Assembly (NCBI GenBank): GCA_013375475.1
Contig: JABXKD010000094.1
Location: 1 to 12,221, forward strand
Reading direction: 5' to 3'
Source: Promethearchaeota archaeon
Lineage (GTDB): Archaea; Asgardarchaeota; Lokiarchaeia; Sigyniarchaeales; SOKP01
Length of the DNA stretch: 12,221 bases
This document shows, piece by piece, positions 7,656-9,656 of the stretch (position 1 is the first letter of the stretch; every line of letters starts with the position of its first letter). The translations under genes and the position numbers were made by a program. The notes under the pieces were generated by a model, which was not told where the DNA came from, ran no database searches, and saw only the letters and a program-made list of their open reading frames with translations.

Positions 7656-9656
7656 TTGTCTGAAAAGCAGACCATTGATAAAATAAAAATAGGAGTTTAC
7701 GTGTGTAGATGAGGTGTTAATATTGGAGCCCACCTTGATTGCGATGCCGTTAGAGATTTTGTTGAACCATTACCTAATGTCGTTATAGCAAGAACAAATA
7801 ATTTTACTTGTAGCGATCCTGGACAACAAATTATTAAAAATGATATCTTAGAATTAGGCCTAAACAGAATAGTTGTTGCAGCTTGTACGCCTAAGATACA
7901 TGAACCCACTTATCGAGCTGTGCTACAAGAAGCAGGTTTAAGCCCGTATTATTTTGAAATGGTAAACTTAAGGGAACACTGCTCTTTTGTGCATCAAGGA
8001 GATAAAGATAATGCTACAGAAAAAGCAAAACGTTTAGTTCGAGCCGGAATAAACAGAGCAAGAGAATTAGAAAATGTCCCATACAAAGAAATTTCCGTAG
8101 AAAGAGCAGCGTTAGTTATTGGTGCGGGAATTGCCGGGATGAACGCGGCATTAGATTTAGCAGACCACGGGATACAAGTGTATTTAGTTGAAAAACAAGC
8201 TACTATTGGAGGAAAAATGGCCCAATTAGATCGAATCTATCCTACCGACGATTGTGGCATATGAGTTCTTGCCCCCATAATGGTAAACGCTTCAAAACAT
8301 CCTAATATAGAACTTTTTACTTATAGCGATGTCATTGAGTTCAGTGGTATTACTGGTGATTATAACGTTAAAATCCGCAAAAATCCAAGGTATGTTAACG
8401 AAAGTAATTGTACTGGATGCGGATTGTGTTCTACTAAGTGTCCTATAAGTGTTCCTAATGAATTCTACAGTGGAATTGGTGAGAGAAATGCTATATACAT
8501 CCCATTTCCCCAAGCAGTTCCAAAATATGCTGTAATGGATAAAAGTGTTTGTATTGATTGCAAAAATTGAGAACGAGTTTGTCCCGCAGAAGCTATCGAT
8601 TTTGAACAAGAACCTGAAATCGTTCAAGTTAAGGTGGGTGCAGTGATTGTTGCTACGGGTTATGATCAATACCCAATTATTGAAACTAATGATTATAATT
8701 ATGGGATTTATCCAAACGTTATTACTCAAATTGAATTAGAAAGCTTGTTAAGCCCAATAGGACCAACTGGAGGGCATATATACAGAATAACTGACGGAAA
8801 AACACCAAAGACAGTCGTAATGATCCAATGTGTTGGTTCTAGGTCTTTAAAAGCCAATCCCTATTGCTCCATGGTGTGTTGTAATGTTGCTCTTAAAAAT
8901 GCTCAACTATTGAAGCAGGAATATCCGGAAATGGATGTAATTATATTTTACATTGACATCAGAACTACTGATAAAGGCAACGAGGAATATTACAGAACAA
9001 TAAGGGAAGCTGGTGTGCGAATGATTCGGGGAAAAGTAGGCGAAATCAAAGAAGATGAGGATCATAATTTAATGGTTCGAACCTATTCATCTCTAACTGG
9101 TGAACTAACCAAGATAAAGGCAGATATGGTAGTTTTATCTACTGGAATGAACCCTTCTAAAGGGACTGAGGAAGCAATTGAAGTATTAGGTTTAAGTAAA
9201 GGACCTAACGGCTTTTTGTCTGAAATTCATGGTTGTTTGAAGCCCCAAGAAACTAAAAACATGGGTATTTACATCTGCGGAAGCGCTGCAGGGCCGAAGA
9301 ACATACCCTATTCCGTTTCTACAGCTTTAGCTGCTGCAAGTAAAGCTGCTGCTTTGCTCTCTCATAAAACTATTACACAAGAATTAATTATTGCAGAAGT
9401 CGATGAAACTTTATGTATAGGTTGCCATAGATGCGAAAAGTTATGCGAATACGGAGCAATAAGCGTAGATAAGGATGAAATTGCTAAAGTGGACGATTTG
9501 AAATGCAAGGGATGCGGAGTATGTATTTCTTCATGCCCAGCTCGAGCAATTGATTTGAAATATTATCGAGATCGTCAATTCGAGGCTGAAATCAAAGGAA
9601 TCGGTAATACTGAAATAGACGAGATAGCAAAAAAAACTATTAAAATCGAAAATTAG
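7656..9656 (+). CDS. hdrA: Heterodisulfide reductase subunit A (FAD/Fe-S), selenoprotein with three Sec (U19, U203, U305); 666 aa
   Basis: One frame runs from TTG 7656 to TAG 9654-9656. TGA occurs at 7710 (IGVYVCRUG, cf. VCHCG), 8262 (PTDDCGIUVLAP, cf. DCxxCIL.P) and 8568 (CIDCKNUERVCP). Other motifs: GAGIAG Rossmann, AACTP, NLREHCS, QCVGSR...YCSMVCC and a C-terminal 2x[4Fe-4S] domain. Confidence 0.95.

Follow-up and report, generated by a model that had tools for sequence, protein, structure and literature searches.

We analyzed a 12,221-nucleotide stretch of DNA from a Promethearchaeota archaeon (Lokiarchaeia, Sigyniarchaeales; contig JABXKD010000094.1 of assembly GCA_013375475.1), here called the window, and report that its hdrA gene carries a selenocysteine (Sec) codon inside a ferredoxin motif. 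Codon 305 of this gene, a TGA, replaces the third Cys of the second CxxCxxCxxxCP motif in HdrA's inserted ferredoxin domain. That the codon is a genuine Sec codon is very well supported; ligation of a [4Fe-4S] cluster by its selenium is the best, though unproven, inference. What Sec does in HdrA is acknowledged to be an open question. Sec305 is the cleanest natural case that we found for asking how a selenolate ligand affects a [4Fe-4S] cluster: the inserted ferredoxin domain comprises only about 80 residues, its natural Cys counterparts are about 90% identical, and it belongs to a branch that must reach about -500 mV.

Codon 305 of hdrA and its conservation

Positions 8550-8585 of the forward strand read TGT ATT GAT TGC AAA AAT TGA GAA CGA GTT TGT CCC and translate to CIDCKNUERVCP, exactly the letters and the frame given in an earlier note on this DNA (the original prediction), which had reported a TGA within a CxxCxxUxxxCP motif. 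The corresponding nucleotide pattern, TGY-N6-TGY-N6-TGA-N9-TGY-CC, matched once in the window and in none of 200 dinucleotide-preserving shuffles. Its TGA (8568-8570) is codon 305 of a 666-codon frame on the forward strand (7656-9656) that runs from a TTG start to a TAG stop, contains three in-frame TGA codons and is open when TGA is read through. Under translation table 11 the frame is broken, with pieces ending at 8264 and 8570 and with open reading frames (ORFs) at 8280-8570 and 8634-9656. Because gene callers cut the gene into three pieces in this way, inventories of Asgard HdrA undercount hdrA. The original prediction was right about the motif around Sec305; it missed two further Sec codons in hdrA, Sec19 (7710-7712; VCRUG, in the N-terminal Cys-rich domain) and Sec203 (8262-8264; DCGIU), and a selenocysteine insertion sequence (SECIS) common to hdrA and the next gene.

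Residues 9-651 of the 666 aligned with solved HdrA proteins at 55-60% identity (9sfi_A, E = 1e-220; 5odc_A, 2e-214; 8rvu_a, 1.4e-209; 7bkb_A, 3.2e-160), and the domain order of HdrA was matched: an N-terminal Cys-rich domain, a thioredoxin-reductase/FAD part, an inserted ferredoxin domain and a C-terminal ferredoxin domain. Judged by its sequence, the gene product is HdrA over its full length, the flavin and iron-sulfur subunit of electron-bifurcating complexes of the heterodisulfide-reductase type. The FAD Rossmann motif (GxGxxG) is present as VIGAGIAG; the Pfam models NAD_binding_8, DAO, FAD_binding_2 and Pyr_redox_2 matched residues 152-193 and 443-559, and ferredoxin models matched residues 246-312 and 576-636. 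In the inserted domain, scanned with C in place of U, the matches were Fer4_8 (250-312), Fer4_17 (251-312) and Fer4_2 (246-263). The first motif of this domain, C252-x2-C255-x2-C258-x3-C262-P263 (8409-8444, forward strand), is all-Cys by translation and is covered by Fer4_8 and Fer4_2, and the second is C299-x2-C302-x2-U305-x3-C309-P310 (8550-8585). The two motifs stand about 40-50 residues apart, as in 2x[4Fe-4S] ferredoxins of the clostridial type, and Sec occupies the seventh ligand position.

The alignment with 5odc_A, HdrA of M. thermolithotrophicus, is gapless in this region with a constant offset of 6. It places Sec19 on Cys13, Sec203 on Cys197 and Sec305 on Cys299 (within 'ciecglCakvc'), where the inserted ferredoxin domain has the third Cys of its second motif; the motif as a whole aligns with C293/C296/C299/C303. 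Sec203 is the canonical Sec/Cys197 position of HdrA, at which the Cys or Sec of DDCxxC/U is present as U203, and it aligns with an X in 9sfi_A. In the two solved HdrA sequences compared at the Sec305 column, the residue is Cys, within a ferredoxin motif. All three TGA codons of hdrA thus fall on conserved Cys columns.

We examined codon 305 in 44 orthologue rows from the genus and the order, and in a smaller first set of 30 rows. The original prediction had proposed conservation of the TGA in relatives as a check, and TGA was indeed found in 8 of the 44 rows, with TGT or TGC in 36 and nothing else (7 TGA and 23 Cys in the first set). When the 101-residue domain was searched against 42 genomes of the genus, it gave 54 matches at E up to 1e-32, and eight of them contained one TGA; eight species-level genomes carry TGA at codon 305. 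Public records with the same gene are labelled Promethearchaeota or Hermodarchaeota. The two other Sec positions were less variable in the 30-row set: codon 19 was TGA in 27 of the 29 rows covering the column (one more row was gapped), and codon 203 was U in all 30. Within the window's own genome, four Sec-type HdrA paralogues use columns 19, 52, 77, 203 and 305. Column 19 is TGA in all four, and Sec at column 305 occurs solely in the window gene. The genome also keeps all-Cys HdrA paralogues.

On a quick maximum-likelihood tree of 41 rows, from which fragments shorter than 550 residues (L038, L039 and L172) had been dropped, the Sec/Cys label required four changes of state, at least three of them forced by well-supported (starred) branches. 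One clade of 11 rows (support 100) contains seven Sec and four Cys at codon 305. The one remaining Sec row, L034, falls in another clade, likewise well supported, and is an independent occurrence. Among the sequences compared, codon 305 is an interchangeable Sec/Cys site that has been switched several times within one genus.

For estimates of selection, the window gene was compared with nine orthologues of equal length; L174, one codon shorter and misregistered, was dropped. In codons 306-666, dN/dS was 0.032-0.086 at dS 0.5-1.8, compared with 0.025-0.092 upstream. A dN/dS of 0.03-0.09 downstream of codon 305 indicates that the part of hdrA after the TGA is translated. A genome-wide reassignment of TGA, as in codes that read it as Trp or Gly, was rejected, given that TGA here falls on Cys columns only. 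The stops of 13 long ORFs in the window are TAA in nine, TAG in three and TGA in one, the CofC-like gene; because hdrA itself ends in TAG and one of the 13 ORFs stops at TGA, the codon is not reassigned genome-wide.

Read-level TGT or TGC at codon 305 had been named in the original prediction as one finding that would refute Sec; assembled contigs from two DNA studies and one RNA library show TGA instead. A contig of a DNA run from the first study covers 8280-8609 with no differences, a contig of a DNA run from the second study covers 8029-8651 with one difference (8076), and a metatranscriptome contig from the third study covers 8510-8871 with differences at 8667 and 8693. This support comes from assembled contigs rather than raw reads, and DNA can occur in an RNA library. 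As a separate observation, contigs of two metatranscriptome libraries from one study cover parts of 7657-8871 and 9735-9782 at an identity of at least 93%. Such cover of parts of hdrA and a short piece of the next gene, vhuD, in some cases with several differences that point to strain variants, is consistent with expression and is not proof of it. Other parts of the window had no cover by RNA contigs, and we base no conclusion on this.

The SECIS shared with vhuD and the Sec machinery

After a 21-nt spacer (9657-9677), hdrA is followed on the same strand by a vhuD/mvhD-like gene of 136 codons (9678-10088; Pfam FlpD, E = 3.5e-37), whose read-through frame contains two in-frame TGA codons, Sec18 (9729-9731) and Sec69 (9882-9884). 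A eukaryote-like SECIS of the loki type lies at 10107-10141 on the forward strand, starting 19 nt past the vhuD stop and 1537 nt past the Sec305 codon. It consists of ATGA (10107-10110), an 8-bp stem (10112-10119/10130-10137) flanked by a U.U pair, an A-rich 10-nt loop (10120-10129) that begins AAAA, and AA at 10139-10140. Of the 28 loci whose downstream DNA is long enough, 18 have the same hairpin about 450 nt past the end of hdrA, and the alignment of these 18 sequences contains compensatory changes in 5 of 11 consensus pairs. No Rfam family matched the loki-type SECIS or any other part of the window at E up to 1. Bacterial-type SECIS elements right after each UGA were set aside as a candidate, since the organism is archaeal (histone, Alba and Ras-family GTPase genes) and the 3' element is conserved.

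An Asgard hdrA-vhuD pair with a shared SECIS, and HdrA with multiple Sec residues, are already known. As in the Lokiarchaeota hdrA/vhuD pair of Mariotti et al. 2016, in the parts of that paper available to us, vhuD directly follows hdrA on the same strand after a very short spacer, hdrA ends in a non-UGA stop, several UGAs fall on conserved Cys columns with the canonical one included, and one eukaryote-like SECIS, located after vhuD only, serves UGAs across more than 2 kb (PMC4989117). The published lokiSECIS likewise stands alone after vhuD and serves the two genes together; its stem measures 9 bp and its loop 11 nt (PMC4989117). In the Asgard selenoproteome of Huang et al. 2024, by its accessible passages, HdrA and FrhD/VhuD are the most abundant selenoproteins, are always neighbours and have a common eSECIS-like type I element; the AUGA_AA core variant seen here was reported there for hdrA/frhD in Lokiarchaeia (PMC11227280). 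The window locus has the traits of an Asgard hdrA-vhuD selenoprotein operon, namely Sec/Cys pairs, vhuD directly downstream on the same strand, a non-TGA stop of hdrA and a single SECIS. We propose that hdrA and vhuD would be expressed from one polycistronic message with five UGAs, three in hdrA and two in vhuD, and that the single eukaryote-like SECIS just past vhuD would recode all five, as described for Lokiarchaeota.

Among the components needed for Sec synthesis, the genome contains SepSecS (380.9 bits, above cut-off) and two SelD genes above cut-off, each of which has an in-frame TGA. For tRNA-Sec we used as a probe the gene of relatives that is positive for the Rfam family RF01852. This probe detected a homologue on contig C230 (26824-26970, minus strand; G000, L042:2885-3031), directly upstream of SepSecS, with a TCA anticodon, a 9-bp acceptor stem and 93-100% identity to the relatives' genes in two blocks. 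The homologue is interrupted twice, by a 27-nt insertion after the anticodon and by a 30-nt insertion in the T-loop, and we consider it a strong candidate for tRNA-Sec. RF01852 scored above cut-off in 16 of the genus's 42 genomes. All 11 genomes of the window's HdrA clade lacked such a match, so that a doubly interrupted tRNA-Sec may be a clade trait. ARAGORN found no tRNA in the window.

A Sec codon at a cluster-ligand position

The original prediction had proposed a natural selenolate-ligated [4Fe-4S] cluster. What stands of this proposal is a genuine, conserved Sec codon on a ligand Cys column (Cys299 of 5odc_A) with no spare Cys adjoining it; the Se-Fe bond itself is deduced. The Cys that Sec305 replaces ligates a [4Fe-4S] cluster in every 2x[4Fe-4S] ferredoxin fold. 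In that fold, each cubane is bound by the three leading Cys of one motif together with the CP-Cys of its partner motif. By this textbook rule, Sec305 should share one cubane with C299, C302 and C262. The motif is otherwise a perfect CxxCxxCxxxCP and, because no spare Cys lies near Sec305, a selenolate-ligated [4Fe-4S] cluster is the best reading of the site. Judging from homology to solved HdrA, both cubanes of the domain would be assembled, with four protein ligands each.

We consider it probable that Sec305 is decoded through the shared SECIS and ligates the [4Fe-4S] cubane of the low-potential exit domain, in a modulating role. Coordination through selenium would give this cubane three thiolates and one selenolate, and the inserted ferredoxin domain serves as the low-potential exit of the flavin-based bifurcating HdrA. 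In an accessible account of M. maripaludis, electrons leave the bifurcating FAD for the inserted ferredoxin domain and then pass to ferredoxin or polyferredoxin (PMC13518236). Sec305 would modulate the cluster in its potential, electron-transfer rate or robustness without being essential; most orthologues, including four in the same clade, use Cys, which argues for a modulator rather than a requirement. The finding also corrects an earlier view in which Sec in Loki HdrA does not act as a cluster ligand.

That view comes from Mariotti et al. 2016. As far as the available text goes, Lokiarchaeota HdrA was described there with five possible Sec positions, up to four per gene and the canonical one always included, and these sites were considered not to coordinate clusters, except the most C-terminal Sec of HdrA.2, which lies in the last [4Fe-4S] motif and is followed by an extra Cys (PMC4989117). 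To present the window's site as unprecedented, as the original prediction did, was therefore too strong, since a multi-Sec HdrA with one Sec inside a [4Fe-4S] motif had been published (PMC4989117). Unlike that C-terminal Sec, Sec305 belongs to the inserted ferredoxin domain, to its second motif, and lacks an extra Cys; going by how the paper words it, the site is thus not among the five positions, although figure 3 or the supplement could still list it. Mariotti et al. counted four clusters in HdrA, whereas later structural accounts add an N-terminal cluster that is partly bound by Cys197 (PMC9012536). In the 5odc crystal structure, Cys197 is a ligand of the N-terminal [4Fe-4S] cluster contributed from the partner protomer, according to the summary of the 2017 structure in Chadwick et al. 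2022 (PMC9012536, as accessible). The Cys197 position is a cluster-ligand position, and the same may hold for the other Sec positions of the N-terminal domain.

A close natural parallel is Sec197 of Methanococcales (9sfi/9t1s), a natural Sec at a [4Fe-4S] ligand position of HdrA that is Cys in other species (PMC13518236, in part). For Sec197/Cys, the M. maripaludis cryo-EM study (2026) proposes a thiol-selenol shuttle (available portions of PMC13518236). Sec197 lies on the path from FAD to the low-potential branch, and the window protein carries its equivalent, U203, as well. The two positions differ in setting: Sec197 is a lone Cys position in the thioredoxin-reductase domain, for which a Cys-Sec redox pair has been suggested (PMC13518236), whereas Sec305 stands inside a textbook CxxCxxCxxxCP motif. 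In synthetic Sec-for-Cys [4Fe-4S] maquettes (2023), too, one thiolate of CxxCxxCxxxC was replaced by a selenolate, there with the aim of tuning the potential. The maquette, however, is a man-made peptide of the 16-mer type, and its authors, in the accessible part of their article, cite [NiFeSe] hydrogenase as the natural precedent for an Fe ligand and no natural Sec ferredoxin motif (PMC10946529). Sec is also a metal ligand in the anaerobic redox enzymes [NiFeSe] hydrogenase and Sec-formate dehydrogenase, as far as the sources available to us describe them, but there it binds Ni or Mo/W at a catalytic site and not an electron-relay cubane. By the available text of a 2026 review, most Sec-metal contacts are only inferred from Cys homologues.

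The positions of Sec in HdrA, or their relation to Fe-S ligands, are not discussed in the accessible passages of Huang et al. 2024 (PMC11227280), and HdrA Sec positions are likewise not discussed in those of a 2021 paper on Asgard recoding, a 2024 paper on wetland Asgard archaea and the 2026 review. In the literature on HdrA selenocysteine and [4Fe-4S] ligands that was available to us, mostly outside subscription journals and in part, we found no description of Sec in the second HdrA ferredoxin motif. As far as we found, the Sec305 site, the lack of a back-up Cys, the repeated gain and loss, and the occurrence in two HdrA paralogue groups are apparently undescribed.

Several points weigh against a Sec-ligated cluster decoded in this way. 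Observed directly were the TGA and how it is conserved, the exact match to a ligand Cys in the alignment, the SECIS and the greater part of the Sec machinery, whereas translation of Sec in vivo, the Se-Fe bond and a redox effect are inferred. Cys occupies codon 305 in most orthologues, including the four of the window's own clade, and Sec gives no indispensable function. In the cryo-EM structure with canonical Sec197, a Cys-Sec feature lies off the cluster in one state (PMC13518236, in part). The best EFSec-like match in the genome (226.3 bits) falls below the curated cut-off of 242.25, and so does the best PSTK-like match (167.8 bits; cut-off 290.5). The tRNA-Sec was missed both by ARAGORN, which found 22 tRNAs in the genome, and by RF01852; ARAGORN gave an unclear result on the in-silico spliced candidate (tRNA-???, with a 4-base anticodon reading). 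The SECIS alone folds with a minimum free energy of -13.9 kcal/mol (z = -1.99), a modest margin over shuffles, 9 of 200 of which reached this value, and its stem and loop each fall one position short of the published lengths (9 bp and 11 nt). Finally, assembled contigs hide minority variants, and the window itself may come from the best-matching DNA run.

As a rule, Sec marks Cys positions that are redox-active, and Sec305 could be incorporated without being a stable ligand. It could form a reversible selenylsulfide with a Cys of the motif as a switch or relay, or the cluster could be a three-coordinate [3Fe-4S] or have another ligand, Sec305 being a reactive residue in each case. In the M. 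maripaludis structure of 2026, density connects Sec197 with a Cys between the A3 cluster and FAD, and the accessible text calls the pair's role unresolved (PMC13518236); the Sec197 position is still described as an N-terminal cluster ligand in the crystal structure (PMC9012536). A Sec at a ligand position thus need not stay on the cluster, because Sec197 takes part in a Cys-Sec feature though Cys197 is a ligand. Moreover, Mariotti et al. read many Sec sites as a sign of catalytic Cys (PMC4989117, in the parts available). We nevertheless regard a non-ligand Sec305 as rather unlikely: the motif has no extra Cys and is otherwise intact, the column is Cys within the ferredoxin motif of the two solved HdrA proteins compared there, and Sec and Cys swap freely among 90%-identical orthologues while their neighbours stay fixed, which fits a structural ligand.

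It is quite improbable, in our view, that codon 305 is recoded facultatively, with Sec or Cys inserted according to selenium supply, so that the protein would be mixed and its cluster often all-thiolate. Cys is evidently acceptable at this codon in 36 of the 44 orthologues, and in animals the Sec pathway is known to place Cys at UGA when selenium is short. Methanococcus, however, meets selenium shortage with separate Cys isoform genes (PMC11097638, in part), and the window's genome likewise keeps its all-Cys HdrA paralogues. A more drastic reading takes the TGA as a stop in a split or decaying gene, with an N-terminal fragment of about 304 residues and a possible C-terminal product from GTG 8634. 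This would agree with the separate table 11 ORFs (8280-8570 and 8634-9656) and with the failure of standard tools to find tRNA-Sec in this genome, but we consider it very improbable, as the split would cut the ferredoxin domain in the middle of a cluster motif, the TGA falls exactly on a Cys column and alternates with TGT/TGC only, and the downstream codons are in frame, gapless and under strong purifying selection. The two other TGA codons of hdrA behave alike, and the genome has a SECIS, SepSecS, Sec-containing SelD and a tRNA-Sec candidate. An error in sequencing or assembly, with TGA in place of TGT or TGC, might also be imagined, the TGA being one base away from a Cys codon in an assembly of 288 contigs with an estimated contamination of 6.41%. 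The same TGA, however, recurs in eight species-level genomes, in four named public records of metagenome-assembled genomes (MAGs; among the matches listed) and in the contigs of two DNA studies and one RNA library, so that an error is already refuted for practical purposes.

Further candidate Sec motifs and neighbouring genes

In the window's own genome, open frames contain 141 all-Cys CxxCxxCxxxC motifs and three U-containing candidates, of which only that of the window is credible. A scan of 400 Asgard genomes with the pattern C..C..U...C...AI gave 17 matches in 16 genomes, compared with none for the reversed control. Eight of the 17 are the Sec305 site in orthologues of the window gene. Four others (L191, L192, L194 and L196; G200, G214, G256 and G012:C5) carry TGA at the same column in HdrA paralogues that are 42-52% identical, come from four genera and contain 5-6 TGAs each, with the motif CVECFSUV[DE]ACELDAI or CINCKLUIDSCELNAI. 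L193 (G219:C12), an HdrA 72% identical to that of the window, has Sec at the third Cys of its last, C-terminal motif (CKGCGIUVTSCP) and adjacent TGAs in VUUC, where the window protein has VCCN, at a conserved Cys pair of the thioredoxin-reductase part. L190 (G190:C80) is a 100-residue ORF resembling a 2x[4Fe-4S] ferredoxin, with TGA at the third Cys of the second motif (CFGCNIUTKKC). In the 900 nt downstream of it, a strict scan for hairpins gave no SECIS; the ORF could be either a broken gene or one more Sec-ferredoxin. The remaining 3 of the 17 matches are without coding support.

A pattern scan across GTDB gave at least 120 stretches and is not a census. Among the matches listed, 59 of 120 passed a loose open-frame filter, five being HdrA and two other plausible Fe-S proteins by context; the remaining ones, high-GC frames full of U, were treated as chance. 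Four named MAG records among the matches listed have the window's site, and one Hodarchaeota record (L150) has the C-terminal motif site as in L193. Two bacterial matches to the CxxCxxUxxxCP..AI pattern stand in recognizable Fe-S enzyme settings: CNVCHRUDDACP in a Marinacidobacterales MAG (L124), in a context like reductive dehalogenase or QueG, and CVGCMTUVTECP in a Latescibacterota MAG (L149), in a context like pyruvate:ferredoxin oxidoreductase. Their frames look disturbed further downstream, and they may be errors or pseudogenes.

Taken more broadly, selenium may have been placed deliberately, in this Asgard lineage, on the low-potential Fe-S relay of the bifurcating HdrA. Sec19 and Sec203 would lie on or close to the N-terminal cluster and Sec305 on the exit cubane; in relatives, Sec occurs also at the VUUC pair and in the C-terminal ferredoxin motif. 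Ligation by selenolate would then be a natural and repeatedly evolved tuning of potential or electron-transfer rate, for which the 90%-identical Sec and Cys orthologues would be natural controls. We put this forward tentatively, as a possibility about which we have more doubt than confidence.

Downstream of the SECIS, a gene at 10153-11712 on the forward strand encodes an FrhB/FdhB-like protein with two [4Fe-4S] motifs (FrhB_FdhB_C, E = 2.2e-41; FrhB_FdhB_N, 3.9e-18; Fer4). It likely belongs to the same module as hdrA-vhuD, an operon being suggested by its position. About 170 N-terminal residues of this protein are without a Pfam match. A CofC-like gene, for F420 biosynthesis, lies 3 kb upstream of hdrA (3862-4590, forward strand). 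No hdrB- or hdrC-like gene occurs in the 12.2-kb window, a statement for this locus, as the rest of the genome was not searched for hdrBC. HdrA may serve a non-heterodisulfide HdrA module, and the HdrA-VhuD pair may be part of a deazaflavin-linked module rather than of a classical heterodisulfide reductase.

The genes around hdrA in the window include two HIT-domain genes and genes for Alba, an archaeal histone, TrmB, a Ras-family small GTPase, CofC, seryl-tRNA synthetase and ribosomal protein S13. Taken with the labels of the public records that have the same gene, this gene content identifies the window as DNA of an Asgard archaeon. The HIT-domain genes (2-439 and 1101-1436, both on the forward strand) flank the Alba gene. 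They are a local duplication, because their C-terminal halves are nearly identical and the second is without the N-terminal part of the first. On the reverse strand, 4597-5829 encodes a Lys/Glu-rich protein of 410 residues, probably a coiled coil, with no Pfam match at E up to 1e-5.

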